Positions 12,138 to 62,671 of a stretch of DNA of 64,000 bases are shown one piece after another. Numbering within the stretch: position 1 is the first letter of the stretch; each line of letters begins with the position of its first letter. The notes beneath the pieces were generated by a model. The model was not told the DNA's origin. It made no database searches and saw nothing but the letters and a program-made list of their open reading frames with translations. Position numbers and translations under genes: made by a program. The DNA comes from Paenibacillaceae bacterium ZCTH02-B3 (lineage in GTDB: Bacteria; Bacillota; Bacilli; Paenibacillales; Paenibacillaceae), in contig LZRV01000077.1 of the NCBI GenBank assembly GCA_002159065.1, positions 12,476-76,475 on the forward strand. The letters run 5' to 3'.

Positions 12138-12611
12138 CCCCCCGGTTTCGATCCCGCATATACGCTTTAGTTCCGACAATGTCGCTTTTCCCGAACGGAA
12201 CTCTTCCGCCATCCGGACAAATGCCAGAGCCGCGCCGACCGCGTCGTGCAAAGCGTGGTGTTCGGCCGCGCCGCTCAGTACTTTGACCGCCTCGTCAAGA
12301 CCGTAATGGCGGACAAGATCCGGAAGACGATGGCGTGTCAAACCGGGGCTGAGCTTTCTTGACAATCTCATCGTGTCCAATACGGCCAGAACTTCCGGGT
12401 TCGGAATGTACCGGGTCAGGAGTTTCCAATCGATCCTCGCGTTATGGGCTACAAAAACGGCATGACGCAAACGCTCCGCGACAGAGCGTTCGATATCCGC
12501 AAATCTTGGAGCATCTTCCACCATCTCGTTCGTAATGTTATGCTTCAACCAAGGGAGCCGTTTGATGGGGGATTCGGGCTTGACCAAAGAATAGAACGGA
12601 CGGCGGTCCCC
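12138..12611 (-). pseudogene. N-terminally truncated DnaQ/PolC-type 3'-5' exonuclease remnant
   Basis: The Exo II/III region is present (ITNEMVEDAPRF, AVFVAHNARIDWKLL, HHALHDAVGAALAF). The Exo I DxE segment is missing, and an in-frame stop lies at 12612-12614. Confidence 0.5.
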
Positions 12612-36543: not shown

Positions 36544-38406
36544 GTGGAGCGGGCGGATTCCTTCATGATGCTGCGTAGGTATCCTTTCAACAGCCTGAGA
36601 AGCAAGCTCATGGCCCTGTTCGTCATTCTGACCTCGGCGCCGCTCATCGCCGTCGGAATCGTGTCGTACCAGAAATCGTTCCAGACCCTTTCCGATTACA
36701 GCAAAGCCGCCAACGCCCTGGTCGCCGAGAATTTCCTGCGTGAACTCGACATGATGTTTCTCAACGCCAGCCGGCTTCTGGAACTGGAAAGCAACCCGAT
36801 GGTGCGCCGCTTTCTGTTCTCGCAGACCGAGACGTACCCGGAAGCCATGGGAATCCTGCAAACCTTCAAGCTGTACCGGGAAACGTACCAGTTGAATGAA
36901 CTTGTGCTCAACGTCACCCTGGTCAATTTGTACGGAAAGGGGATCAGCGAACGAAAAGGCGTTTTCCAGTTGAATCAGAATCTGCGAAAAGAACCCTACT
37001 TCCAGACGCTGCTGGAACTCCCCGATGAAACCCTTTACGTTCCCCCCTCGTCGGTCCCCTCCGTACCGAAGCTGGATGGGCTGGATTACGGCGGCAAGAA
37101 GACGATTTCCATCATATCCACCATCAAACAGCCCATCACCCACCAAGTGATCGGCTTCATCACCATCGATCTCGACAGCTCGGTGGTGCAAGAATTCAGC
37201 GAAACCAACCGGATCGGCAGAACCGGATATTTCTTCGTGGCCGACAAAAACGGCAAACCCATCTTCATGCCGGAACCGCAAGCGGCCGGCGTCGGTTGGC
37301 TGCCGCCGCTTACGGACGTCGCCCGTTTCGGCGGAACCCGCGGCCAGCTGGTGGACAACAGTCTCGGCATCCCGGTGTTCGTCATCTACACCATTTCCTC
37401 GCAGACCGGCTGGTACATCGTCGGCCAGGTGCCGCTCGCGGAAATTACCCGGGACGCGGTGCAGATCCGCAATCTCATTTTCGCCAGCGCCATCTTAAGC
37501 GTGGTGGTGGCCATTACGCTCTATTTCTATCTCACCAATCGCATGACCCGGCCGATCCAGATTCTGAAGAACAAGATGCGCCTGGCCGCATCCGGATATC
37601 TGGAAGCCAAGGCGCAGATCGGCGGCACCGACGAAATCGCCGATCTCGGCCGAAGCTTCAACACCATGCTGGAACAGATCAAACAGCTGCTCGACCGCAG
37701 CATCGAGGAACAGAAACAGATCCAGCTGGCGGAACTTCGAACCCTGCAGGCGCAGATCAATCCCCATTTTCTGTACAACACCCTGGATTCCATCGTCTGG
37801 ATGGCCGAAGCGCGCAAGCACGATCAAGTCATCCGCCTGGTGCAAGCGCTTTCGCAATTTTTCCGGATCAGCCTGAGCAAAGGAAAGGATGTGATCTCCA
37901 TCGGGGAAGAAATCGATCACATCCGCAACTATCTCATCATCCAGCAAATGCGTTACAGGGACATCCTGAGCTACGACATCCGGGTCGATCCCGGCATCCT
38001 GCATTGCCGGGTGCTGAAAATGACGCTGCAGCCGCTGGTGGAAAACGCGCTTTACCACGGCATCAAAAACAAACGGCGCAAAGGGTTGATCGAGGTTCGG
38101 GGCTGGCGGGACGGACAGGGAGGCATCCTGCTGAAAGTCTCCGACAACGGGATCGGCATGACGCCCGACCGCCTGGACGAAATCCGCCGTTCCCTGTCGG
38201 GCGGCATCGAACCCAGATCCGACAGTCCGGATGAAACCCGCCATCAAGGCTTCGGACTGCGCAACGTGCATCAGCGCATCCGCCTCTATTACGGAGAGCC
38301 CTACGGCCTCCATATTGAAAGCGCGTATATGGAAGGTACGGAAGTCACCTTGCGGATTCCGGACATCGAAGGTGAGGGGCATGAAGAAGATTCTGCTCGT
38401 GGATGA
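36544..38406 (+). CDS. Sensor histidine kinase, YesM-like (2 TM, extracellular domain, HAMP, His_kinase, HATPase_c)
   Basis: H-box LRTLQAQINPHFLYNTLDSI. ATPase motifs ENALYHG, DNGIGM and GFGLRNV. Confidence 0.9.
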   Translation: MERADSFMMLRRYPFNSLRSKLMALFVILTSAPLIAVGIVSYQKSFQTLSDYSKAANALVAENFLRELDMMFLNASRLLELESNPMVRRFLFSQTETYPEAMGILQTFKLYRETYQLNELVLNVTLVNLYGKGISERKGVFQLNQNLRKEPYFQTLLELPDETLYVPPSSVPSVPKLDGLDYGGKKTISIISTIKQPITHQVIGFITIDLDSSVVQEFSETNRIGRTGYFFVADKNGKPIFMPEPQAAGVGWLPPLTDVARFGGTRGQLVDNSLGIPVFVIYTISSQTGWYIVGQVPLAEITRDAVQIRNLIFASAILSVVVAITLYFYLTNRMTRPIQILKNKMRLAASGYLEAKAQIGGTDEIADLGRSFNTMLEQIKQLLDRSIEEQKQIQLAELRTLQAQINPHFLYNTLDSIVWMAEARKHDQVIRLVQALSQFFRISLSKGKDVISIGEEIDHIRNYLIIQQMRYRDILSYDIRVDPGILHCRVLKMTLQPLVENALYHGIKNKRRKGLIEVRGWRDGQGGILLKVSDNGIGMTPDRLDEIRRSLSGGIEPRSDSPDETRHQGFGLRNVHQRIRLYYGEPYGLHIESAYMEGTEVTLRIPDIEGEGHEEDSARG

Positions 38407-40033: not shown

Positions 40034-41006
40034 GCAACGGGGACGGAAACGGCTCGCGGCGCTCCTGGCCGTCCTGGTTCTGGCCGCGGGAACGGGATGC
40101 CAGGGAGGGATGCCGGACACCGCCCTGCCTGGGCCCGGCGACTCTCCCGAGCCGGAACCACCCGCCTACGTGTTCGGCATCATTTACCCTTACGCCCATC
40201 CGCTGTATGAATGGGTGACGAGACAAGCCGAGGAGACCGCCAGGGAGCACCGCGTGAAACTGATGGTGAGGGCGCCGGACGAAGCGCATCTGGAACAGCA
40301 GATCCGCATGATGGAAACCCTGATCAAGGAAGGCGTGGACGGCATCGCCATCGCCCCCGTGGATTCGGACGCCCTCGTCCCGATCATCAATCGCGCCGTC
40401 GAAAGCGGCATTCCCGTCGTCTGTTTCGAATCCGACGCGCCGGACAGCAAGCGGATGGCGTTCATCGGAACCGACAACCTGGAATCCGGGCGCGTGCTGG
40501 CGGACAGGCTGGCGGAAATGCTGGGTGAGGGCGGAATGGTCATCGTGGAGAGCGGCATGAGCCGAATGGAATCGCTGCGGGACCGGCTGGAAGGATTTCT
40601 GACCCGGATCTATGAAACTTCGGACGTCCGGGTGCTGGATGTCCGATACCACGAAGGCGACGACCAGAAAGCGCTGGCCGATCTGGAAATCATGACGGAA
40701 AACCATCCCCATTTCAACGCCCTCATCGCCCTGGATCCCGTTTCCGTTTCCTCCGCCGTTCTTTTCTGGAAGGCCAAAGGGCTCAAACAATATTTGCTGG
40801 CTTTCGGGCTCACGCGGGAGGTATGGGAAGCGGTGAACAACGGGCAGATCACGCATGTCGTTTCGCAGGGCGAATTCCAATGGGGCAAGCGGATCGTCCA
40901 TTCGCTGCTCGCGCTGCAAAGGGGGCGGCAGGCGACCGTTCTTCAGGACACGGGAACCGAATTGTACAGCCGGGATTCGAGGATTGACTGGATGTTTGAG
41001 AATTAG
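40011..41006 (+). CDS. Sugar-binding lipoprotein associated with the two-component system (PBP type I)
   Basis: Lipobox LAAGTGCQ. Contains VDGIAIAPVDSDALVPIINRAVESGIPVVCFESD. It overlaps the RR gene end by 23 nt. Confidence 0.8.
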   Translation: MFRRRRAKQRGRKRLAALLAVLVLAAGTGCQGGMPDTALPGPGDSPEPEPPAYVFGIIYPYAHPLYEWVTRQAEETAREHRVKLMVRAPDEAHLEQQIRMMETLIKEGVDGIAIAPVDSDALVPIINRAVESGIPVVCFESDAPDSKRMAFIGTDNLESGRVLADRLAEMLGEGGMVIVESGMSRMESLRDRLEGFLTRIYETSDVRVLDVRYHEGDDQKALADLEIMTENHPHFNALIALDPVSVSSAVLFWKAKGLKQYLLAFGLTREVWEAVNNGQITHVVSQGEFQWGKRIVHSLLALQRGRQATVLQDTGTELYSRDSRIDWMFEN

Positions 41007-42562
41007 GAGATGTTCTCCCGGTCATCCCCCTTGCCTTCGCGCTTCGCCTGATACATCTTCTTGTCCGCGTGCCACAGGAGCAGGTCGATGGTATCGCCGT
41101 GTTCGGGATACCGGCTGATCCCGATGCTCAGACTGACTTCGTCCATGACCGGCCGGTTCGACATCTTCAGCTGCGCAAAGGCGTCGAGCAGCCGCCCGAC
41201 CCGATCCTCCACGTGGCCTTCATCCGGGTAATCGTCAAGGAATATGACGAATTCGTCTCCGCCGATGCGGGCCGCCATGCCGTCCGTTCCCGCCGTGTCG
41301 CTCATCAGGGCGGCGATCTTCACCAGCGCCTCGTCTCCCGTCTGATGCCCGTAGCGGTCGTTCACCGTCTTGAAGTTGTCGACGTCCACAAGCAGAAGCG
41401 CCAGCGGTTTCCGCCGTTCGGCCGGACGATCCAGCTTTTCCTGCAGCTTTTCCCGGAAGTGCCGGCGGTTCGGCAGTTCCGTAAGCGGATCGTGATAGGC
41501 GAGGTAGGCGATTCGCTTCTGCTGTTCGATGAACGGGGTGGCATCCCGAATGATGACCAGGATGTGCGGATGATGCTCGACGAGGATGTAGCCCGCGTCG
41601 ATCAGGGCGTGGATCGTTTTGCCGCCGCCGGAGATCGTCATCTCATGGTTTCTGACCTCCCGCTGACGTTCCACGAGCTCGCGGAAATTTTCGCCCAGAA
41701 TCGACCACAGATTATCCTGTTTCACGGCATGGGAACCGAACATCTCTTTGGCCCCGGGATTGGCTTCCTTGATGAGGCCGCCCGCATCCGCCAGGAGAAT
41801 CGCGGCCGGGTTGAGATGGAACAGCTTCTCGAATCTCCGGTCCGTAAAATTGAGAAAATCGTATTTCCGCATCGTGCGCCTGAGGAAAAAGAACCACACC
41901 ACGCCGCCGTAAAGATAGGGATACGGCGGAAGGGCGCTGCCGAATTCGATCAGGCCGAAAATGCCGAACCACGCCGCAGCCAGAACCACGCCGATGCCGA
42001 GATGCTTGTAAAGGTCGCGCATTTCCCGGTTCGCCGCCTGCCGTTTACCGATGACGAGCGGGATCAGGTACAGGAGATTGTTGATCACGCACAGCACCAT
42101 GGTGATATAGTAAGGCGTATTGTAGACCGGAAGTTTCCAGAGTCCCGATTCATAAAACCGGGTGACGGAAATGGTGGTGTCGATCCGCAGGAGGTTGATC
42201 ACGACCAGGATGACCGGCAGGTAAAAGATCCAGGGGTACACATACCGGGGCATCTTGCGGTCCAGTTTCGTCAGTTTGACGAAGAGGTGAAATCCGAGTC
42301 CCGGAATCAGGATGCCGGACGTGCTGAACCATACGGCGGCCACCACCGGACTGTATTCAATGGGAAGCTGGTGACGCACGTATTCCGCGAGGAACAGGTT
42401 CATGAAGCAAAGCGAAATCAAGCTGACCAGACGGTGTTCGATTTTCCTCGCGTCGCGGATCAGCATGTCGATGCTCATGAAGGCGAAATACAGGATCGGC
42501 ACGAAGTGGGTCAGCAAAGGGACAAAGACCTGCTGGGGTGTCATCGGGTTCACCGTTTTCAA
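41003..42562 (-). CDS. Membrane-anchored PAS-GGDEF diguanylate cyclase
   Basis: About 7 N-terminal TM helices, then a PAS-like region, then LLLVDVDNFKTVNDRYGHQTGD...RIGGDEFVIFL. The stop codons of this gene and the convergent SBP gene overlap (TTAG). Confidence 0.9.
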   Translation of the reverse strand: MKTVNPMTPQQVFVPLLTHFVPILYFAFMSIDMLIRDARKIEHRLVSLISLCFMNLFLAEYVRHQLPIEYSPVVAAVWFSTSGILIPGLGFHLFVKLTKLDRKMPRYVYPWIFYLPVILVVINLLRIDTTISVTRFYESGLWKLPVYNTPYYITMVLCVINNLLYLIPLVIGKRQAANREMRDLYKHLGIGVVLAAAWFGIFGLIEFGSALPPYPYLYGGVVWFFFLRRTMRKYDFLNFTDRRFEKLFHLNPAAILLADAGGLIKEANPGAKEMFGSHAVKQDNLWSILGENFRELVERQREVRNHEMTISGGGKTIHALIDAGYILVEHHPHILVIIRDATPFIEQQKRIAYLAYHDPLTELPNRRHFREKLQEKLDRPAERRKPLALLLVDVDNFKTVNDRYGHQTGDEALVKIAALMSDTAGTDGMAARIGGDEFVIFLDDYPDEGHVEDRVGRLLDAFAQLKMSNRPVMDEVSLSIGISRYPEHGDTIDLLLWHADKKMYQAKREGKGDDRENIS

Positions 42563-42786: not shown

Positions 42787-43095
42787 TTGTTCCGGACCGA
42801 ATCGCCCGCCGAAGTGCTGGAGAGGCTGAAACGCAACGAATCTTTCACCCTTCTTGACGTTCGGGAATACGACGAATGGGCGGAGGGACACATTCCGGGC
42901 GCCCTGCACATTCCGCTCCGCGAGCTGCCTTTCCGCCTGGGGGAACTGGACAGGTCGAAAGAGACGGTCGTCGTTTGCCTGAGCGGCGTGCGCAGCGCCC
43001 GGGCGTGCGAGTATCTTGCCTTGTGCGGCTACCGGGCGGTCAACATGGAAGGCGGCATGAAGCGCTGGCCCGGAGACGTCGTCTCCGGGCCGTGA
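42787..43095 (+). CDS. Rhodanese-like single-domain sulfurtransferase
   Basis: Contains LLDVREYDEWAEGHIPGALHIP and the active-site loop VVVCLSGVRSARA. Confidence 0.85.
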   Translation: MFRTESPAEVLERLKRNESFTLLDVREYDEWAEGHIPGALHIPLRELPFRLGELDRSKETVVVCLSGVRSARACEYLALCGYRAVNMEGGMKRWPGDVVSGP

Positions 43096-43107: not shown

Positions 43108-43308
43108 TCAAACGCCATATCGCGCATCGCAGATGGAACACATCGAGTATCCCGGCTTCTTGGGCCTTTTGCCGCACGCTACGCACAAATCCGATTTGGA
43201 CCCCCCGGCGACCTGCTCCAGATCCGATTTGCCAAGCTCCCGGTGATCCGGACGGTGTCCTTCCCGTCCGCCGGCTTCACTCCGCGCGTGAAGGTTTTCC
43301 CGATCCAT
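43108..43308 (-). CDS. Double-glycine leader peptide, four-Cys core (candidate RiPP precursor A)
   Basis: GGAGGAA lies 6 nt before ATG 43308. Leader ...RELGKSDLEQVAGG, core SKSDLCVACGKRPKKPGYSMCSICDARYGV. Confidence 0.6.
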   Translation of the reverse strand: MDRENLHARSEAGGREGHRPDHRELGKSDLEQVAGGSKSDLCVACGKRPKKPGYSMCSICDARYGV

Positions 43309-43450
43309 GCGTCATTCCTCCGTTTCGCTGGTTATGGTCTGCAAGCTTTCATTTCTTCGCGCTGCGTCCTTCCGATCCGCTTCCCGTTTCTCCGGGCCGG
43401 ATCTTCCCGTGTCCGTCTATCGGGCAACTCCGCTTTCCTTGGATGTTGGT

Positions 43451-43663
43451 TCATCCCTGCCGGGATTTCAAATTCACAAGGCATTTGGAGCAAAGATCGA
43501 ACCCCTGGACGGCCACGTTGTCGCAACCCGGGGTCGCGCACGGGTGAACCGATGCGCCGGTGCCGCCGAAAATGAATTCGAGTTCCTCATCGTTCAGTTC
43601 GCGATTCGACAGACCGCGTTCGCCGTCCTTTTCCCGTTCCGGACTGAAGCCTTCCCCGTTCAT
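43451..43663 (-). CDS. Double-glycine leader peptide, four-Cys core (candidate RiPP precursor B)
   Basis: GAAGGAA lies 6 nt before ATG 43663 (Met17 of the track ORF). Leader MNGEGFSPEREKDGERGLSNRELNDEELEFIFGG, core TGASVHPCATPGCDNVAVQGFDLCSKCLVNLKSRQG. Confidence 0.6.
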   Translation of the reverse strand: MNGEGFSPEREKDGERGLSNRELNDEELEFIFGGTGASVHPCATPGCDNVAVQGFDLCSKCLVNLKSRQG

Positions 43664-43701: not shown

Positions 43702-43745
43702 ATCGTAACATGCCATTTTAAAATGGAGTTTAAATTCCTTTTAAA
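43702..43745 (-). promoter_or_regulatory. Phased-repeat promoter in front of precursor B/A
   Basis: On the minus strand: TTTAAAAggaaTTTAAACtccaTTTTAAA, 9 nt (atggcaTGt), then TACGAT. The 7-mers are exactly 11 bp apart. Confidence 0.6.
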
Positions 43746-43748
43746 TCA

Positions 43749-44462
43749 TTATAAAATTTCCATCCGGTATCCGATGCCCCTGACGTTCTGGATGACGGAC
43801 AAATTCGAGACTTGCAGGATTTTTTTGCGCAGGGTGCTGATATGCACCGCCACCGTGCGAAAATCGTCCAGGCCGTCGTAGCCCCACACGATGCGGTAGA
43901 TTTCTTCGGGCTGAAAGACACGCTTCGGATTTTCCGCCAGCAGGACAAGCACCTTGAACTCTTTCGTGGTCAGTTGCACCGGGCGGCCTTCGACTTCCAC
44001 GGTGCAGCTTTCCAGATCGATGGTGAGCGGACCCAGCCGGATGACGCTTTTGGTTTCCTGGGCCGCCGCCAGCTCCTTCTTGCGTTTGATCAACAGGCTG
44101 CGGCGCAGGTGCGCCTTGACCCTGGCCACCACTTCCCCCTGGCTGTAAGGCTTGCTGATATAGTCGTCGGCTCCCGCCATGAGCCCCATGATCTTGTCCA
44201 TCTCGGAACATTTCGCGCTGATCATGAGAATCGGCACGTCCGTCAGCTTGCGCAATTCCTGGCAGATCATGACGCCATCGCCGTCCGGCAGGATCGCTTC
44301 CATGAGAATGAGATCCGGGGGATTGTCCCGCGCGCTCCGCAAGGCCGCGTCCGCCGAATGGCAGCCGGTGACGCGGTATCCGTCCGACTGAAGCGCCGTG
44401 CCGATCTCCCGACGAACCGCTTCATCGGGATCGGCGATCAGGATGAGGGGTTGCCCTTGCAT
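43749..44462 (-). CDS. OmpR/PhoB-family response regulator, orphan and atypical (Glu at the phospho-acceptor position)
   Basis: The REC domain reads LILIADPDE...PDLILMEAILPDGDG...ILMISAK...ISKP. The winged-helix output reads LTTKEFKVLVLLAENPKRVF...VRGIGYRM. The start is taken at ATG 44462. The TTG at 44534 lies too close to a TATAAT at 44555-44550. Confidence 0.85.
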   Translation of the reverse strand: MQGQPLILIADPDEAVRREIGTALQSDGYRVTGCHSADAALRSARDNPPDLILMEAILPDGDGVMICQELRKLTDVPILMISAKCSEMDKIMGLMAGADDYISKPYSQGEVVARVKAHLRRSLLIKRKKELAAAQETKSVIRLGPLTIDLESCTVEVEGRPVQLTTKEFKVLVLLAENPKRVFQPEEIYRIVWGYDGLDDFRTVAVHISTLRKKILQVSNLSVIQNVRGIGYRMEIL

Positions 44463-44613
44463 CGGGAAACGGTCTCCTTTACCTCGGTTTTCGGCCATAC
44501 CCATACGATACGAGACATTTCGCTCTATTCGCAAGATTCGTTACTTTCCATTATAATCCGGGAAGGAAAAAAATCTATTCAAACCCAGTTTTTTAGCGGG
44601 GATGGTTTGAAAT

Positions 44614-44668
44614 TTTAAACAGAATTTAAACTTGATTTAAACCAGTTTTGAATGTTGTGTGGTATCTT
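44614..44668 (+). promoter_or_regulatory. Phased-repeat promoter in front of the three plus-strand Nif11-type precursor genes
   Basis: TTTAAACagaaTTTAAACttgaTTTAAACcagtTTTGAAT with 7-mers at 44614, 44625, 44636 and 44647. This is followed by 9 nt (gttgtgTGg) and then TATCTT (44663-44668). Confidence 0.65.
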
Positions 44669-44751: not shown

Positions 44752-45093
44752 ATGTCGCTCACAAACGCGCAAGCCTGGTTGGAAAAGGTTCGGACCGACC
44801 CCGATCTTCAGGCCAAAATCCGGGAACTGGCCCCCGAACAGCCGGACCGGATTCTGGACGCCCTCGTGGCCGCCGGTGCGGAGGCCGGTTACGCGTTCGG
44901 CAAGGAAGATTTGCTGCAAGCCGCCAAAGAGGCGGTATCTTCCGCCGCCGGGAGCCCGGACGAGCTGGACGAAGAACAGCTGGAGCTGGTGGCCGGCGGC
45001 GACGATACGATCCTGTACGTTTTAGGGTCCATTATCACGGCGGGAATTGGATGTGCCATGCTTGGCTTGAAGCATGCCATCAAAGGTTCCTGA
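44752..45093 (+). CDS. Nif11-type leader peptide precursor 1
   Basis: RBS GGAGGG. Leader MSLTNAQAWLEKVRTDPDLQAKIRELA...EEQLELVAGG, core DDTILYVLGSIITAGIGCAMLGLKHAIKGS. Confidence 0.85.
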   Translation: MSLTNAQAWLEKVRTDPDLQAKIRELAPEQPDRILDALVAAGAEAGYAFGKEDLLQAAKEAVSSAAGSPDELDEEQLELVAGGDDTILYVLGSIITAGIGCAMLGLKHAIKGS

Positions 45094-48754: not shown

Positions 48755-51700
48755 CTATCGCAATACACTTTGGATTTCCGCGGGAGCCGCGCACCGCAGC
48801 AAGGTATAGCCGATCCCCGAGATCCCCTGGAAAAAGGACGGATTGAACCAGGCGCCCCCGTCGCCCCCGTGAAGCAGATAGTGCCCGTTTCTCCGCTTGC
48901 GGGCGATGACCGCCCCCGCTTTCCGCCTTGCTTCCTCCAGCAGATCCGGCCGGCCAAGCGCAAGCGATGCCTCGACGAGAAAGTCGATTTTGCCCGCGTT
49001 GCCGCAGCAGACGTGGTCGTTCATTTCCAGCGTGCACGTGCGGGCAAATTCCACCGCGTTTTCGACGTCCCGCATGAACCGCCGGCGCAAGTTCCGTTCC
49101 CCGTCTTCCCCGCTTGCTGCGGCTTCCGCCTCTGTCCCGGCTTCGACGCCTGTTCCGGTTTGCGCGCTTTTTCCGGCATTCCCGCCGTCCGCGCCGGCGG
49201 TCAGCATGGCAATGCGGGCCAATCCGACGCCGGGAGCGCCGCTGCACCAGCCCGGCATGAACGCCGCACCGCCGCCCGCCGCCTGTACGGCCTTCTCGCG
49301 CAAATCCGGCCAATTGCCATGCTTTTCGTCATACAGGCTGTTTTCATAATCCACCGCTTCCATGGCCGCGTCCCGAAACGCCCGTTCTCCCGTCGCCCGC
49401 CACAGGCGGTACAGGGCGGCGGCATAGCCGGCCGCGCCGTGACCCATCCCCGTGAGAGGTTCCGGGGCGATTCCGGTGGTCCAGACCCGGTGGCCCGACT
49501 TCGCCCGCACCCGGGATTTCAGCAAATGTTCGCCGCACCGTTTCGCCAGATCGAGGAGATCGCCGCTCTTTTCGGAGCGGTGCAGATCGAGGAGCACCAG
49601 GATGAGGCCTGCCGCCCCGCCGAGCACGTCCAGCCAGCGGTCGCCGTCGATCTGTTCCGGCCGGATCCGGCGCACAAGCCACAGGGCGGCTTCCGTCAGG
49701 CCGGGTTCTCCCAGATAATCGCCCATGACCGCCAGACCCCTGACGATGCCCGCCAGGCCGCTTCCCAGTCCCAGGGGCATCCGGTACGCCGGGAACGGAT
49801 GATCCCGGTCGTTCAGGCTTTTCAGCAAAGGATTCAAGGCCTGGAGGACCGTTTCCCGGATCGCTTCCTTCCCCGTCAGCCGGTACAGGGCGGCCATGAA
49901 CACGCCCAGGCCGGCCAGTCCGTCGTAGAAGCCGAAGCCGATCCGGCCGAGGGTCATTTTTTGGGCCTGCAAATGATACTGCCGCACGATCCACGTGAAA
50001 TCCCCGTCCGCTCCCACGATCCGCCTGGCCATGATTTCCTCGCAGATGCCGGCGGCTTCCCCGATCAGAAGTTCGTCGCCCGGATCTTCCGGTTCCGCCG
50101 GGACGCGGAATTTGTCCGGCCTCTGGTTACGAGTCCGCTCCGGCGTCCGGCCCGGCGTCGGGTCCGGCAGCCGGTCCGGGGGCTGTTCCGAAGTCCGGTC
50201 CGGGGGCCGCTCCCCCGCCGCATGGGACGGCTCCGAGGCCATGGACAGGGCCGTCCTGATGAGATCGATCTGCGCGTTTTTGTCCCGTTCGTCCATGCGC
50301 CGGATCAGGGCTTTCGCCCGGTCGAAGGCGCTTTCGAGAAAATAGCCCGGATGAAGCGTCCCGCTTCCGTCCTCGAGGGCCAGATTCCGCGCGTGCCCGT
50401 AAAAGATCGGGACGTCCCGGTTTTCCAGCGCGTCCCGCTCCGCGCAAAACACCTTCCACAGCTCCCGCAGCCCGTCGTCGGGCGCCGCGATCAGGTAGGC
50501 CGGAGCCAGGCGTTCCACTTCGAAGGAATAGAGCAGTCCGTCGCGGAGAAACCCGGGCTGGGCGGCATGGTTCAGCACATCGGCATAAACTTGCGAGTTC
50601 CGGATCAGGATGCGGAACCGGCACGTTCCGAAAGCGTCGAGCGGCGACGTTTCCCCCGCGTGTTCTCCCAGGATCCGGGGCTTCTCCCCGGCGATCCGGT
50701 CGTAAGCCCACGCGAATCCGGCCAGCAGATGCTCCTCGTAATCCCGCACATCCAGCGGCCGGCCGTCCAGAACGGGCAGATGGAGACCGCGCTCTTCCCG
50801 GCAGGTGAGCGCCCCCCAGTCCGCCGCCTTCCCCTGGGCGTTCACGTGCCAGTACGGCAGCATGCCGACGCGCAGGACCGAATCGCCAAGGGTATCGAGG
50901 GCCAGATCGGCCGCGCTTTTGCCGCTTTCCCCCAGATGGAACGGTTTCACCCGGTGCAGAAGCAGCGTTTCCAGATCGACGGGGACGGGATGGGCGCCGC
51001 TGGCGATCAGGTTTTCGAAATGAAAGTCGTTTCCGCCCAGCGCGTAGATCGTGCCGAGGAGAACACCGGCCCGGAAATAGAAGGCCGCGGCGTCCTCTGG
51101 CCGCGTGAGCGGCCTTCGCTCCACGAATTCCGCCCAGCCGTGGTCTCCCTCGTCCAGCACCCGGGGCGTCCACAGCCGGTGGGGAATTCCGTCCCGTTCC
51201 AGGAAGCGGATCCATTCGTTCCAGGCGGCGTCAATGGCCAGGCTCCTGGGCTTGTAAACGAGTCTCAGGCCGGATTCGAAGGCGAGAAGAAGAACGGTTT
51301 TGCCCCCGTTGTGGACATCGGACGCGTTCGCCTCCACCGCGGTTACCCGCCCAAGCGGCCTGCCTTCGTGAAACGCCTCTTCCAGCTTCATCTGGTCCGC
51401 CGCGAGGCGGGCGGCGAATTCCGCCAGATTCCTCTTCCATTGGCCGATCGCCTGCACCATGAACCGGGCGAGGACGGGATGCTCCGCCAGCACGTCCTTC
51501 CATTTTCCCGCCGCAAGTTCCGCCAAATACGCTTTCCATTCCGCCTGCCACTCCTCGTGGAAGAACGAGGGTCCAAGCAGGAGATGCAGCGGTTTTTTGC
51601 CGCTCATGGCCGCCAGAAAACCGGCGCGGCACGTCCGGAAACTAAGCGTTGCCAGCCGCTTGGCCAGCGCCCTGCGCATGTCCCGTACGGCGGAATCGGC

Positions 51701-52156
51701 GAACAACCGGAGTTTCTCCCCAAGCCTTCCGGCCAGCTGCTCGCAGGCATCCTCCAGAAACGGCTCCAGGGCCGGGGTCGGATCCCACAACCCTTGGCCT
51801 TCTTCCGGCGGCGAAGCGGACATCCGCTGAAGCCGCGACAAGATGCGCTCCAGTTCCCGCACCCATTCGGGAAGGGGCGTTTCCGCCTTCCAACGCACGG
51901 GGCCGAGCAGCCGTCCGGCCTCGTCCGGCGAAAGTCCGTCCAGGGCGAGGCGTTTGCGAAACGCCGTCTCTCCGCCGCTTCCGCCGGCTTTTTTCCGCCA
52001 GCGGGCAAACAGGTCCTCACGGACCCCGGGCGGCGCCTCCCCGATCTCGACGGACCCCGCCCGCGACAGTTCCAGCCGTTCTTTGAGAAACAGCGCCCTG
52101 CCGGCGATTTCGCGCCATTCGTTCTCCGTGAACACGGCCATTCTAGACACCCGCAT
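48755..52156 (-). CDS. lanM: Class II lanthipeptide synthetase LanM (dehydratase + LanC-like cyclase), ProcM-like CCG type
   Basis: 1133 aa. The dehydratase motif is GGNDFHFENLIASGAHPVPVDLETL. The cyclase motifs are GMGHGAAGY, GWCSGAPGVG and VCCGNAGKIDF. The start may be Met6 (52141). Confidence 0.9.
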   Translation of the reverse strand: MRVSRMAVFTENEWREIAGRALFLKERLELSRAGSVEIGEAPPGVREDLFARWRKKAGGSGGETAFRKRLALDGLSPDEAGRLLGPVRWKAETPLPEWVRELERILSRLQRMSASPPEEGQGLWDPTPALEPFLEDACEQLAGRLGEKLRLFADSAVRDMRRALAKRLATLSFRTCRAGFLAAMSGKKPLHLLLGPSFFHEEWQAEWKAYLAELAAGKWKDVLAEHPVLARFMVQAIGQWKRNLAEFAARLAADQMKLEEAFHEGRPLGRVTAVEANASDVHNGGKTVLLLAFESGLRLVYKPRSLAIDAAWNEWIRFLERDGIPHRLWTPRVLDEGDHGWAEFVERRPLTRPEDAAAFYFRAGVLLGTIYALGGNDFHFENLIASGAHPVPVDLETLLLHRVKPFHLGESGKSAADLALDTLGDSVLRVGMLPYWHVNAQGKAADWGALTCREERGLHLPVLDGRPLDVRDYEEHLLAGFAWAYDRIAGEKPRILGEHAGETSPLDAFGTCRFRILIRNSQVYADVLNHAAQPGFLRDGLLYSFEVERLAPAYLIAAPDDGLRELWKVFCAERDALENRDVPIFYGHARNLALEDGSGTLHPGYFLESAFDRAKALIRRMDERDKNAQIDLIRTALSMASEPSHAAGERPPDRTSEQPPDRLPDPTPGRTPERTRNQRPDKFRVPAEPEDPGDELLIGEAAGICEEIMARRIVGADGDFTWIVRQYHLQAQKMTLGRIGFGFYDGLAGLGVFMAALYRLTGKEAIRETVLQALNPLLKSLNDRDHPFPAYRMPLGLGSGLAGIVRGLAVMGDYLGEPGLTEAALWLVRRIRPEQIDGDRWLDVLGGAAGLILVLLDLHRSEKSGDLLDLAKRCGEHLLKSRVRAKSGHRVWTTGIAPEPLTGMGHGAAGYAAALYRLWRATGERAFRDAAMEAVDYENSLYDEKHGNWPDLREKAVQAAGGGAAFMPGWCSGAPGVGLARIAMLTAGADGGNAGKSAQTGTGVEAGTEAEAAASGEDGERNLRRRFMRDVENAVEFARTCTLEMNDHVCCGNAGKIDFLVEASLALGRPDLLEEARRKAGAVIARKRRNGHYLLHGGDGGAWFNPSFFQGISGIGYTLLRCAAPAEIQSVLR

Positions 52157-53294
52157 CCAGGTACTCGAACTTGCCGCCCGTCACCTTCTTCAGCACGACG
52201 AGGTCGCCGATGTCCTCCCCGTTCCGGTCGAAGGTGTGGAACCCGGCGACGCCTTCCCAGTTTTCGATGGTATGAAGGGCAGCCGCGATGTCGCGGGGGA
52301 CGATCGACCGGGCCCGGTTCATGGCCTCGGCCAGCAGGTGGACGGCGTCATACCCCTGCGCGGAATATTGGGTCGGCATGGTGCCGTAAGCCCTGTTGAA
52401 AACATCGATGAACGCCTTCACCTTTTCCCGCCGGCTTTCGGGGTTGAAGAAGGCGCCGATCACCATGCCTTCCGCGGCCTTCGCCCCGGCGATGCTCCAC
52501 AGGTTCGGCGTGTCCATGGCGTTCCCCGCGAACAGCGGAACCCCGATGCCGGCCGCCCGCAGCTCCGCGACGAGCTGCGCGCCCGCCGCGCCCGACTTGG
52601 CGATGAAGATCCCGTCGTACTCCAGGATCTCCCATTTGAACTTGAGCCGCTCCAGTTCCGACGGTCCGGTATAGAAGGTCAGGCGGTCCACAATGTCGAT
52701 GCCGGAACGGCCCGCGTGTTTTTCAAAGGCGTCCGCCAGCCCCTTCCCATAGGCGTCGTCGTCGTACAGGATGACCATCCGGCGGTGTCCGTTCCGGGCG
52801 GCGTAGTTGGCCACGGAGGCGGCCACCTGCTCGTCGCTGGCGATGTTGCGGAACACGAGCCGCTGCTTCTCGCTGATGAATTCGGGAGCGCTGGAAGCGG
52901 GAGACAGCATGAGGATGCCGGCCCGTTCATAGATGGAGGAAACCGGAATGGACACGTAGGAATTCCGATGCCCGATCACGGCCACCACCTGGATGTCCTC
53001 CGAGAAAGACTGGGCGATTTCCAGCCCTTTCGTCACCGAGGATTCGTCGTCCTTGATAATGACGTTCAGCTGGCGCCCCAGCACCCCGCCGTCGGCGTTG
53101 AGTTCCGACACGGCAAGGGCAACGCCTTCCAGGAACCAGTCGTTGGCGGCGGAGATGGGCCAGGCCACTCCGATCGAAATGGGACCCCTGTGGCGCTTGG
53201 CGAAGGCTTCGCGCTCTTGCGCCGTGGATGCGACCGAGCAACCGGCAACGGCCATCGCCAGCAAGAGGAGGATGGCAATCGGCAAGCGTCTCAT
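52143..53294 (-). CDS. LivJ-like (Peripla_BP_6) ligand-binding lipoprotein
   Basis: GAAAGGAGAT lies upstream of ATG 53294. Lipobox LLAMAVAGCS. Contains ISIGVAWPISAANDWFLEGVALAVSELNADGGVLGRQL. It overlaps the annotated lanM start by 14 nt. Confidence 0.85.
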   Translation of the reverse strand: MRRLPIAILLLLAMAVAGCSVASTAQEREAFAKRHRGPISIGVAWPISAANDWFLEGVALAVSELNADGGVLGRQLNVIIKDDESSVTKGLEIAQSFSEDIQVVAVIGHRNSYVSIPVSSIYERAGILMLSPASSAPEFISEKQRLVFRNIASDEQVAASVANYAARNGHRRMVILYDDDAYGKGLADAFEKHAGRSGIDIVDRLTFYTGPSELERLKFKWEILEYDGIFIAKSGAAGAQLVAELRAAGIGVPLFAGNAMDTPNLWSIAGAKAAEGMVIGAFFNPESRREKVKAFIDVFNRAYGTMPTQYSAQGYDAVHLLAEAMNRARSIVPRDIAAALHTIENWEGVAGFHTFDRNGEDIGDLVVLKKVTGGKFEYLDAGV

Positions 53295-54583
53295 GCTTTG
53301 ATCTCCTTTCCAACCCGCACGGGACGGGACGCCTTGACCGCGGAACCATTGACGAGAATGGTCGACGCGCAGGCCAAATGCACGTTCAGCATCGTCAGGA
53401 TCGGGTCGACGATGGGCGTGACCGCGAGCAGCAGCACCACCGCCGTTTCCGAAGGAAGCCCCAGCGGCGCCAGAATGATGCCGATCATCGACAGCGAGAC
53501 GAGGGCGGGAGCCCCCGCGCCCGAGAGAGCGGCCAGGATGGAAGCCAGGAGGACCGTCGCGATTTGCCCCGGGCCCAAGGGCACGCCATACAGCTGGGCC
53601 ACAAAGATCGTCCCGACGGAAAACATCGTCACCATGCTGTACCGGCAAAGGATGATGCTCAGGGGAGTCACGAAATTGACCGTTTTCTCCTCCAGCCGGT
53701 AACGCGCGCGCAGCGCCTGGAAGATGAACGGCAGCGTCGCCAGGCTGTTGCGGGTGCCGAAGGCGATGAGCAGCGGCTGTTTGAGGTCCGCCGTCGACCG
53801 CACCAACGAACGCCCGGTCAGCTTCCAGATCAGAACCGCGCTCAGGAGCAGGATGATCAGGCACGCGAGATGGATCAGGACGATGAATTTCGTCATGGCC
53901 GCCAGCAAATCCATTCCCATCGACGCGAACTGGCCGGCCATCAGGCAGAGCAGCCCGACGGGCAGTCCGTAGATGCTCCAGCCGATGATCCGCTCGAAAG
54001 CCTTGTAGATCACCTCGATGACGTCCAGGACGTCGTCCCGCTTTTTCTCGCGGACGGTACCGATGGCCACGCCGAACACCATGGCCACGAACAGCACCTG
54101 CAGGTTCTGTTCGCCGAGCAGCGATTCGAACAGGTTGGTCGGGATGATCATGGCCAGAAAATCCATCACCGTAAAGGCGCCCTGCGTTCCGGACTGGCCG
54201 CTGACCATCGCCTCTCCGCCCATGATCGCGTTTCCCAGCACTTCCCGCGCGCGCTGATCCAGGCCGGTCCCCGGATTACCGATCAGCCCCACGCCGACGC
54301 CGATGAGGCTGACCAGCAGCAGGCCGGTGGCGAAGGTCAGCACCGTCCGCTTCAGGTAACGCACCGCCTCCCGCGAAGCCATGAGCTTGCCCAGGCTGGA
54401 GATGATGGCCGTCACCATGATGGGAACGACCAGCATTTTTAAAAAGGAAAGATACAATTCCCCGACGGGGGCGATAAACAGGGCGACATTCCGATCGTAG
54501 AGCCCCAGCAGAATGCCGATCGCCATCGCGGCCAGGGACGTGCCGGGCCGCTTGAGCCATTCCAGTTTCGCCATGGGTTTCAC
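53291..54583 (-). CDS. Dicarboxylate/amino acid:cation symporter (DAACS / SDF family)
   Basis: 430 aa. Contains LYLSFLKMLVVPIMVTAIISSLGKL and TRNSLATLPF plus a SxS-type reentrant-loop region. It has 4-nt overlaps with both neighbouring genes. Confidence 0.85.
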   Translation of the reverse strand: MKPMAKLEWLKRPGTSLAAMAIGILLGLYDRNVALFIAPVGELYLSFLKMLVVPIMVTAIISSLGKLMASREAVRYLKRTVLTFATGLLLVSLIGVGVGLIGNPGTGLDQRAREVLGNAIMGGEAMVSGQSGTQGAFTVMDFLAMIIPTNLFESLLGEQNLQVLFVAMVFGVAIGTVREKKRDDVLDVIEVIYKAFERIIGWSIYGLPVGLLCLMAGQFASMGMDLLAAMTKFIVLIHLACLIILLLSAVLIWKLTGRSLVRSTADLKQPLLIAFGTRNSLATLPFIFQALRARYRLEEKTVNFVTPLSIILCRYSMVTMFSVGTIFVAQLYGVPLGPGQIATVLLASILAALSGAGAPALVSLSMIGIILAPLGLPSETAVVLLLAVTPIVDPILTMLNVHLACASTILVNGSAVKASRPVRVGKEIKA

Positions 54584-61574: not shown

Positions 61575-61618
61575 TTCTTAGCACTCCAACCTAAAGTTCA
61601 ACTAAAATTTACATTAAA
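61575..61618 (-). promoter_or_regulatory. Phased-repeat promoter for the export-lanM operon
   Basis: On the minus strand: TTTAATGtaaaTTTTAGTtgaaCTTTAGG, 9 nt (ttggagTGc), then TAAGAA (61580-61575). It lies about 230 nt upstream of the HlyD start. Confidence 0.5.
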
Positions 61619-61765
61619 TTTTTTTTACCGGCGCCGCGGCCCGCAATATTCCGTTCATCCGGCGGACCGGACGCGGATCTCATGCAAAGACCCGGCTTTC
61701 GGATGCGCACCCTGACTTGAGGAGTGGCACCCGAAGCCGGGCCCGTCTGAAGACTCCCGAGCCGA

Positions 61766-62238: not shown

Positions 62239-62574
62239 TCATCCCTTGAAGGGGGCAAAACCCAACCGGACCGCCGCCTGAAGGATGTACGAATGGCCGT
62301 CGATTTCGTCCTGCGAGATGGAACCCGTTCCGCCGGCCACCAGATCCAGCTGCTCGTCGTCCAGCTCCCCGTTTCTGTTGAAGTTGGCGAAGAGTTCCTC
62401 CTGGAACCGCAAAAAATCATCCGCGCGGAAAGGCAGCCCCGCTTCCTCGCCCAGCCTGGTCAGGCCAACCAGCATATTTTCCCAGCTGTCGGCTTCCATG
62501 CCGGAGATCCTCTTTTGCAGCTGTTCATCGTTGTTGACCTTTTTCAGAAACATCTTCACGTTTTCGACGGACAT
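62239..62574 (-). CDS. Nif11-type leader peptide precursor 5 (core without cysteine)
   Basis: GGAGGG lies 7 nt before ATG 62574 (Met6 of the track ORF). Leader MSVENVKMFLKKVNNDEQLQKRI...DEQLDLVAGG, core TGSISQDEIDGHSYILQAAVRLGFAPFKG. Confidence 0.8.
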   Translation of the reverse strand: MSVENVKMFLKKVNNDEQLQKRISGMEADSWENMLVGLTRLGEEAGLPFRADDFLRFQEELFANFNRNGELDDEQLDLVAGGTGSISQDEIDGHSYILQAAVRLGFAPFKG

Positions 62575-62616
62575 CTTGATTCCCTCCATCGCGGAATTTC
62601 CTGATCGGCTGACTCT

Positions 62617-62671
62617 ACAATAACACGCTATGTTAAAGAACAGTTAAAATTTTTATAAAAACTCATTTAAA
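62617..62671 (-). promoter_or_regulatory. Phased-repeat promoter in front of precursor 5 (and probably 4)
   Basis: On the minus strand: TTTAAATgagtTTTTATAaaaaTTTTAACtgttCTTTAAC, 9 nt (atagcgTGt), then TATTGT (62622-62617). Confidence 0.6.

Follow-up and report, generated by a model that had tools for sequence, protein, structure and literature searches.

An orphan OmpR-family regulator with a glutamate in the phospho-acceptor position as the likely kinase-independent activator of a Nif11/LanM lanthipeptide locus

The 64,000-nt stretch of DNA analysed here (the window), positions 12,476 to 76,475 of contig LZRV01000077.1 of Paenibacillaceae bacterium ZCTH02-B3, carries a lanthipeptide locus whose only transcription-factor gene encodes an atypical regulator of the OmpR/PhoB family. 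The locus holds five Nif11-leader precursor genes, a LanM operon, two genes for double-glycine (GG) leader peptides with four cysteines, two ABC exporters (one with a C39 peptidase domain), a LivJ-like lipoprotein and an SBP_bac_3 protein; the regulator gene lies between the first precursor gene and the four-Cys peptide genes (Table 1). A first-pass annotation, made from the sequence alone, had described the regulator as an orphan with glutamate in place of the phospho-acceptor aspartate, acting independently of a kinase and probably binding phased repeats in the locus. Genome-wide statements below refer to the 3.12-Mb assembly, a metagenome-assembled genome (MAG) of 187 contigs with 62.5% GC and 3.5% contamination.

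The protein has the architecture of the OmpR/PhoB family, with an N-terminal receiver and a C-terminal winged helix, and both Pfam matches exceed the curated cut-offs. In a phmmer search of solved structures, BaeR, PrrA, RegX3, MtrA and KdpE match it over its full length (E 1e-40 to 1e-35). Its start is an ATG preceded by AAAGGAGA, and the same methionine starts the orthologues. An AlphaFold2 model (mean predicted local distance difference test score 91.8) shows the canonical (beta-alpha)5 fold followed by a winged helix; superposition of the model receiver on VicR and on the BeF3-activated receiver of a YycF homologue (2a9o) gives 0.7 A in both cases. The best Foldseek matches are RpaA, PrrA, KdpE and MtrA, with full-length template-modelling scores of about 0.5 that reflect domain orientation only. 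The model and the fold search confirm the fold and do not distinguish an active from an inactive state.

It is in the phosphorylation pocket that the regulator departs from these relatives. The phmmer alignment sets its ppdlilmEailpdgdg against ppdlillDlmlpgtdg of BaeR, and Glu55 likewise faces the aspartate of PrrA (ivlDinmp), RegX3 (vllDlmlp) and MtrA (vllDlmlp), with posterior marks given as asterisks. Because four structure-backed alignments pair Glu55 with the acceptor aspartate, we place it in the acceptor column, as the first-pass annotation had done. The columns of the acidic pair hold Asp11 and Pro12, followed by Asp13, where BaeR has Glu-Asp and PrrA Asp-Asp, so that the annotated DPD does stand in place of the usual pair. 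The retention of the conserved Ser/Thr and Lys is also borne out, as Ser82 (miSak) pairs with the conserved threonine and Lys104 (isKp) with the conserved lysine; Tyr101 occupies the aromatic switch column.

The same columns were examined in an 83-sequence MAFFT alignment of the regulator clade and 77 canonical relatives. The acceptor is aspartate in all 77 relatives, which also carry S/T, Y and K in the remaining pocket columns, and their acidic pair reads D or E followed by D (72 sequences) or N (5 sequences). The regulator therefore lacks both the acceptor aspartate and the Mg2+-binding acidic pair of a phosphorylatable receiver while it keeps the Thr/Ser, the Tyr/Phe switch and the lysine, and, being recognised by the receiver profile all the same, it is an aspartate-less receiver (ALR). 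Such domains make up approximately 4% of receivers, and 609 of the OmpR type (2%) were counted in 2015 (PMC4395418, PMC12548384). Among ALRs glutamate is the commonest replacement (26%), triad 1 is kept in 65% and triad 2 is acidic in 29% (PMC4395418); the pattern seen here, with a glutamate replacement, triad 1 kept and triad 2 altered, fits these statistics. Because the acceptor is glutamate and the second Mg2+-binding aspartate is proline, the receiver is predicted to be incapable of accepting a phosphoryl group in the normal way.

A protein search recovered a small clade around the regulator (P0001-P0007 in our numbering of proteins, which runs from P0001 onward), with identity down to 48% and with Salibacterium sp. 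K-3 among its members. All six orthologues, from Paenibacillaceae-type MAGs, Halalkalibacter and Salibacterium, have the glutamate acceptor; the acceptor motif of every clade member is LI[LI]MEA and the acidic pair D-[P/H/G], and the next-best matches outside the clade, at approximately 44% identity, are canonical. Within the clade, position 12 holds P, H, G or Q, and it is acidic in none of the six orthologues. A scan of a genome collection found orthologues at 52-53% identity in two Halalkalibacter genomes, and its seven other matches were unrelated receivers. Since a single cluster, that of P0006, stands out in a profile search of 1.84 billion representative proteins (418 bits, the next match scoring 271), the clade is rare; in a scan of metagenome contigs with the clade alignment, the acceptor motif PDL..[ML]E was present in none of the 80 loci kept, and the second search pattern proved generic.

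The glutamate codon is GAA or GAG in all seven orthologue or relative genes examined, where synonymous sites are saturated, and Glu55 is neither an error nor a recent mutation. Compared with the orthologues in loci L001 and L008 (86% and 63% identity; loci are numbered L001-L018), the ratio of nonsynonymous to synonymous substitution rates (dN/dS) is approximately 0.19 in the receiver and 0.10-0.15 in the DNA-binding domain; the receiver is under purifying selection. One may postulate that a two-component system is decaying here and has left a gene without function, as the loss of a kinase and of catalytic residues resembles early decay. However, the frame is intact in all lineages, dN/dS lies at 0.1-0.2 in both domains, the glutamate is fixed across 48-100% identity, and the neighbourhood and the cis-elements are conserved, and we regard decay as hardly credible.

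In a maximum-likelihood tree the core clade (support 100/99) is nested in a clade of nine members (98/98) that adds P0130 (Glu acceptor, D-Q at the acidic pair), P0144 (Ala, E-H) and P0137 (Asp, D-Q). As all nine have lost the second acidic residue, its loss probably came before the change from aspartate to glutamate. The more distant Glu-bearing relatives were chosen by eye from the profile-search matches, and a single origin of all of them is rejected by the tree, in which P0160 and P0223 fall in other well-supported clades.

The regulator is also set apart from its paralogues. The genome encodes eleven OmpR-family regulators, and the other ten are all canonical ([D/E]D, D, S/T, K); a HATPase_c gene lies within about 2 kb of eight of these, and the remaining two are at contig ends. 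Two OmpR-family genes, C137:82-738 and C121:82-738, have the same coordinates at contig ends and near-identical N-termini, and may represent either strain variation within the MAG or an assembly region that was collapsed or duplicated. In agreement with the first-pass annotation, no histidine kinase gene lies in or next to the regulator locus: the nearest HATPase_c gene on the contig, approximately 5.3 kb away, encodes a YesM-type kinase and overlaps the gene of its own AraC-type response regulator. The orthologous loci L001-L006, the genes scanned in L009 and L018 and the loci of the more distant P0137 and P0144 yielded no kinase call. The regulator is an orphan in this sense, as are most characterised atypical regulators (PMC12632262).

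Control by phosphorylation could still persist if an unlinked histidine kinase acted on Glu55 or another residue, or if a Ser/Thr kinase did so; the genome has 36 HATPase_c matches, some without an adjoining regulator gene, and Ser82 and Lys104 are kept. Against this, no core clade member has an acceptor aspartate or a second metal-binding aspartate, all nine members of the wider clade lack the second acidic residue, with orphan regulators in all of the loci seen, and no bacterial signalling by glutamate phosphorylation is known (PMC4395418). We consider such control very improbable. The proposal that the regulator is independent of a kinase is instead strongly supported at the sequence level, because of the glutamate and proline changes, their fixation down to 48% identity, the lack of an adjacent kinase in the orthologous loci and the canonical state of all other paralogues, of which each that can be judged has a neighbouring kinase gene.

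Phased direct repeats followed by an extended -10 element lie on both sides of the regulator gene. The site with four repeats in exact 11-bp phase has no -35 element and forms the promoter of the first Nif11 precursor gene, and the site on the other side, starting 4 nt past the regulator stop codon, forms the promoter of the four-Cys peptide genes. A third promoter of this kind precedes another Nif11 gene, and a degenerate copy, which fails the mismatch threshold of the genome-wide scan, was read by eye upstream of the nine-gene export/LanM operon. As TTTAAA is palindromic, the orientation of the repeats rests on the flanking bases. For the regulator gene itself, a promoter scan called no minus-strand promoter with a -35 element; a TATAAT near 44551-44556 was read by eye upstream of the gene.

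The repeats are highly specific to this locus. The exact pattern TTTAAAC-N4-TTTAAAC-N4-TTTAAAC occurs once in the genome, at the 44614 site, and TTTAAA-N5-TTTAAA occurs at three positions in two sites, both flanking the regulator gene. A genome-wide scan that allowed up to four mismatches over three phased hexamers together with a correctly placed TGnTAnnnT returned five matches, four of them in the lanthipeptide locus; two of the four are offset readings of the 43745 site, and the third distinct site is the one upstream of the Nif11 gene 62239-62589. The same architecture, including TGcTACGAT, is present 3' of the orthologous regulator genes in L001 and L008, and in L009, one of two Halalkalibacter loci (the other is L004), phased repeats lie upstream of a LanC-like gene without a scored extended -10. 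By chance, approximately 0-0.1 matches to the repeat triplet are expected per orthologous locus.

Table 1. Features of the regulator gene, its candidate binding sites and the surrounding locus (window coordinates unless a locus is named).
Feature	Position	Strand	Detail or basis
Atypical OmpR/PhoB-family regulator, coding sequence	43749-44462	-	237 aa; translation, phmmer, Pfam
Pseudo-receiver domain	residues 7-116 of regulator		Pfam Response_reg (PF00072), E 1.7e-23
Winged-helix DNA-binding domain	residues 159-234 of regulator		Pfam Trans_reg_C (PF00486), E 6e-23
Asp11-Pro12-Asp13 codons	44424-44432	-	GAT CCC GAT; Pro at second Mg2+-binding position of acidic pair
Glu55 codon	44298-44300	-	GAA; phospho-acceptor Asp column; alignment to BaeR, PrrA, RegX3, MtrA
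Ser82 codon	44217-44219	-	conserved Thr/Ser position
Lys104 codon	44151-44153	-	conserved pocket Lys
Phased-repeat promoter, first Nif11 gene	44614-44668	+	7-bp direct repeats TTTAAAC at 44614, 44625, 44636 and TTTGAAT at 44647, exact 11-bp phase; extended -10 TGgTATCTT 44660-44668
Phased-repeat promoter, four-Cys peptide genes	43702-43745	-	TTTAAA at 43745-43740, 43734-43729, 43722-43717; extended -10 TGtTACGAT 43710-43702
Phased-repeat promoter, Nif11 gene 62239-62589	62606-62671	-	phased TTTWAA repeats and TGtTATTGT
Degenerate copy, nine-gene export/LanM operon	61575-61640	-	TTTAATG / TTTTAGT / CTTTAGG, then TGcTAAGAAT; by eye only
First Nif11 precursor gene	44752-45093	+	
Nif11 precursor gene	62239-62589	-	
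Double-glycine four-Cys peptide genes	43663-43451 and 43308-43108	-	
Four-Cys peptide loci	window 43108-43663	-	
	L001 10843-11302		
	L008 942-1169		
	L018 5855-6058		
LanM gene, then DUF7005 and 5'-nucleotidase genes	48755-52156	-	
SDF symporter gene	53291-54583		inside LanM operon
YesM-type kinase gene	36544-38406		
PAS-GGDEF diguanylate cyclase gene	41003-42562	-	
Rhodanese gene	42787-43095		
SDF gene	L018 3801-5123		
Regulator gene (P0130)	L018 5120-5824		
LanC-like gene	L009 9302-10756; L004 11323-12780		484 aa; cyclase domain residues 130-483
Methyl-accepting chemotaxis protein genes	L004 8128-9840; L009 6096-7796; L007 4934-6661		

One explanation for these observations, which we hold to be likely, is that the regulator activates the adjacent Nif11-leader/LanM lanthipeptide genes without a sensor kinase, as a pathway-specific OmpR/PhoB factor with a pseudo-receiver that would work in the manner of CmrT or ChxR. 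Direct bonds among the pocket residues Asp11, Asp13, Glu55, Ser82 and Lys104, of the kind seen in the CmrT crystal structure, would hold the receiver in an active-like, dimerising state. Regulator dimers would then bind the 11-bp-phased TTTAAA(C) repeats head-to-tail, replacing the -35 element at three or four or more extended -10 promoters of the locus, and would recruit RNA polymerase in a PhoB-type class II activation, with output set by the amount of regulator, and possibly by a partner or ligand, rather than by a kinase. Residues K90, D99, D100, E110, R114, R120 and R121 of the alpha4-beta5-alpha5 stretch are invariant or nearly so across OmpR-type relatives, and may correspond to the published salt-bridge network of dimerisation. 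The class II promoters of PhoB and PhoP (pho boxes) likewise place 11-bp direct repeats, bound head-to-tail by OmpR-family dimers, where the -35 would be; they differ in that the repeat here is TTTAAAC and that binding is predicted not to depend on phosphorylation. The repeats upstream of the first Nif11 gene are likely the binding site of the regulator, and the earlier suggestion that it binds them gains indirect support, since it is the sole regulator of the locus and the repeats flank its gene, are specific to the locus and are conserved beside orthologues.

Several points weigh against this explanation. We infer binding to the repeats from adjacency, genome-wide specificity and conservation, and no repeat triplet was found at threshold in L005 (Salibacterium) or L018 (the locus of P0130), where the site may have diverged or where the argument for binding may be weaker. 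A change of aspartate to glutamate does not by itself give activity in CheY, PhoB or Spo0A (PMC4395418). The word constitutive may also be wrong, because three cysteines of the clade (C34, C85 and C153) and conserved small neighbour genes hint at an extra input. Finally, a repressor could make equal use of a site that covers the -35 position of an extended -10 promoter.

Such a repressor would occupy the phased repeats and keep RNA polymerase out until it was removed. The repeats end 9 nt upstream of the TGn-extended -10, so that occupancy could occlude the polymerase, and extended -10 promoters can function without a -35 element. However, direct repeats with 11-bp phasing in place of a -35 are the classic PhoB/PhoP-type layout of activation, the -10 hexamers TATCTT, TACGAT and TATTGT are weak, and the regulator gene of the Salibacterium locus, like that of L018, shares a transcription unit with biosynthetic genes, an arrangement typical of positive feedback. 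W193 is moreover kept as an invariant residue, within the clade motif WG[Y/C/A]DGLDD, in the loop between helices 2 and 3 of the DNA-binding domain, a loop that contacts RNA polymerase in PhoB. Repression is accordingly an unlikely mode of action for this protein, and activation remains the reading that we prefer.

Characterised regulators provide precedents for a pocket of this kind. CmrT of Clostridioides difficile (receiver structure 2QZJ) is likewise an OmpR/PhoB-type protein of the Bacillota with a glutamate acceptor and retained Thr/Ser and Lys, and has D9-G10-D11 where the regulator has D11-P12-D13 and the Salibacterium orthologue D-G-D. In its crystal structure E53, the D-G-D motif, T80 and K102 are hydrogen-bonded without Mg2+ or phosphate, and the single change E53A has little effect; dimerisation is weakened by D9A and by K102A (PMC12548384). 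Unlike our regulator, CmrT is not an orphan, being encoded in the cmrRST operon with a kinase, and it controls motility and colony morphology rather than a peptide cluster. Common descent with CmrT is ruled out by profile scores: a profile of the clade receiver gives 2QZJ 88.5 bits (rank approximately 41) and the YycF, VicR and PhoP receivers 126-140 bits, and because YycF-type receivers score so much higher the resemblance of the pockets is read as convergence.

ChxR of Chlamydia trachomatis shares with the regulator both the glutamate acceptor and the absence of a partner kinase, although its phylum and biology are distant, and it was not among the best 60 solved structures listed for the regulator. 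It forms homodimers independently of phosphorylation, binds to direct repeats and acts as a transcriptional activator (PMC4395418, PMC3960148), and changing its glutamate to aspartate or alanine does not abolish constitutive DNA binding in vitro (PMC4395418). The first-pass annotation had called the glutamate a classical phosphomimetic; the residue is there, and its phosphomimetic role has to be softened because replacing the glutamate has little effect in ChxR and CmrT, the two OmpR-type regulators studied that carry it, whose activity is governed by the wider network of hydrogen bonds (PMC4395418, PMC12548384). Glu55 should rather be read, in our analysis, as part of a pocket that satisfies its own bonds.

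Response-regulator types without a kinase of their own are also found, as here, inside peptide and antibiotic clusters: MrsR1 of the mersacidin cluster (Bacillus) and the cluster-situated JadR1 and RedZ of Streptomyces, of which JadR1 is controlled by binding of the end product and RedZ belongs to the NarL family. They differ from the regulator in having no known association with Nif11-leader/LanM clusters or with TTTAAA repeats. MrsR1 is a single regulator and is essential for lantibiotic production (PMC3141056). In our literature searches we found neither the regulator clade nor a Glu-acceptor regulator associated with Nif11/LanM clusters described; the type of atypical regulator is well known, the lineage has not been described before, and its existence would not surprise a specialist.

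How pseudo-receiver regulators are switched is largely unknown (PMC12632262), and the receiver might be a regulated input module, switched by a cluster partner or a chemical cue, rather than constitutive. This possibility overlaps with our preferred explanation in everything but the word constitutive. Candidate cues are a thiol/redox or metal switch on the clade cysteines, the four-Cys peptide, and the SDF and solute-binding membrane proteins. The cysteines are specific to the clade: C34 is present in five of its six members, C85 in five and C153 in all six, in columns where the canonical relatives carry mostly Ala, Asp and His, and the pseudo-receivers RitR and Hp1021 are redox-controlled through cysteine (PMC12632262, PMC4395418). 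The four-Cys GG-leader peptide gene stays directly 3' of the regulator down to 41% identity (L018), the SDF gene of L018 overlaps the regulator start by 4 nt, and purifying selection on the receiver suggests a retained role. On the other hand, the cysteines vary to some extent (C34 is missing from P0007 and P0130, C85 from P0006 and C153 from P0130), the four-Cys peptide and SDF genes are absent from the Salibacterium and Halalkalibacter loci, the export leaders of the peptides show that they are built for leaving the cell, and a mere role in dimerisation would also place the receiver under purifying selection. We think a regulated receiver less probable than a constitutive one.

A more specific and rather doubtful version has the disabled receiver dock a partner encoded in the cluster, which may couple lanthipeptide transcription to peptide export or to thiol or metal state. 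The leading candidate partner is the double-glycine four-Cys peptide encoded immediately downstream, which, while in the cytoplasm, would restrain the regulator until the C39-peptidase ABC exporter removed it; in a variant of the scheme the three clade-specific cysteines would form a redox or zinc switch. If true, the scheme would amount to a FlgM-type export checkpoint operating in a kinase-less peptide-antibiotic cluster.

Lanthionine-synthetase genes accompany the clade in four independent lineages: LanM with Nif11 peptides near the regulator in the window and L001; the order regulator-LanM-Nif11-PBP-C39 ABC in Salibacterium; the regulator with a Nif11-like precursor and a LanC-like gene in Halalkalibacter; and DUF4135 (LanM dehydratase-type)-SDF-regulator in L018, whose P0130 is 41% identical. 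Because LanM, LanC or DUF4135 genes recur beside the regulator across lineages, a class II-type lanthionine synthetase system is its consistent partner. The Halalkalibacter protein, found beside the Nif11-like precursor, has a LanC-like cyclase domain only, and no LanM or LanB dehydratase was seen among the scanned genes nearby.

Other neighbours recur less widely. In L001-L003, L008, L018 and the window, the regulator gene is directly followed by one for a GG-leader peptide with a CxxC...CxxC-like pattern; the L018 pair is separated by 30 nt and is probably co-transcribed. The SDF gene of L018 lies 3' of a gene with DUF4135 only. Methyl-accepting chemotaxis protein genes adjoin Glu-acceptor OmpR regulators in both Halalkalibacter loci, and another stands in L007 beside P0160, a regulator whose glutamate evolved independently; methylation of the glutamate has been suggested as one way in which such receivers might be modified (PMC4395418), and the adjacency may be coincidental. 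None of these three links, to the four-Cys peptide, the SDF protein or the chemotaxis protein, is universal across the clade. Close to the regulator in the window is a rhodanese gene, syntenic in L001, and between the lanthipeptide locus and the sugar-sensing YesM/YesN genes is one for a membrane-anchored PAS-GGDEF diguanylate cyclase, syntenic in L001-L003. Control in the style of AmiC/AmiR by the LivJ-like binding protein was considered and ruled out, since its lipoprotein signal peptide (MRRLPIAILLLLAMAVAGC...) makes it extracellular.

The clade offers a compact test case, with an orphan regulator, a sharply defined and genome-unique candidate DNA site and three or four promoters, and orthologues occur in cultivated Halalkalibacter and Salibacterium strains, with Halalkalibacter hemicellulosilyticus JCM 9152 and Salibacterium sp. 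K-3 as carriers that can be grown. The wider clade further provides an evolutionary order, in which the second acidic residue is lost throughout and the acceptor is glutamate, alanine or still aspartate. For the Bacillales, the regulator may be a practical means of turning on Nif11/LanM lanthipeptide clusters that otherwise stay silent: placed in Bacillus subtilis together with the repeat-bearing promoters, it should drive the cluster without any sensing input.

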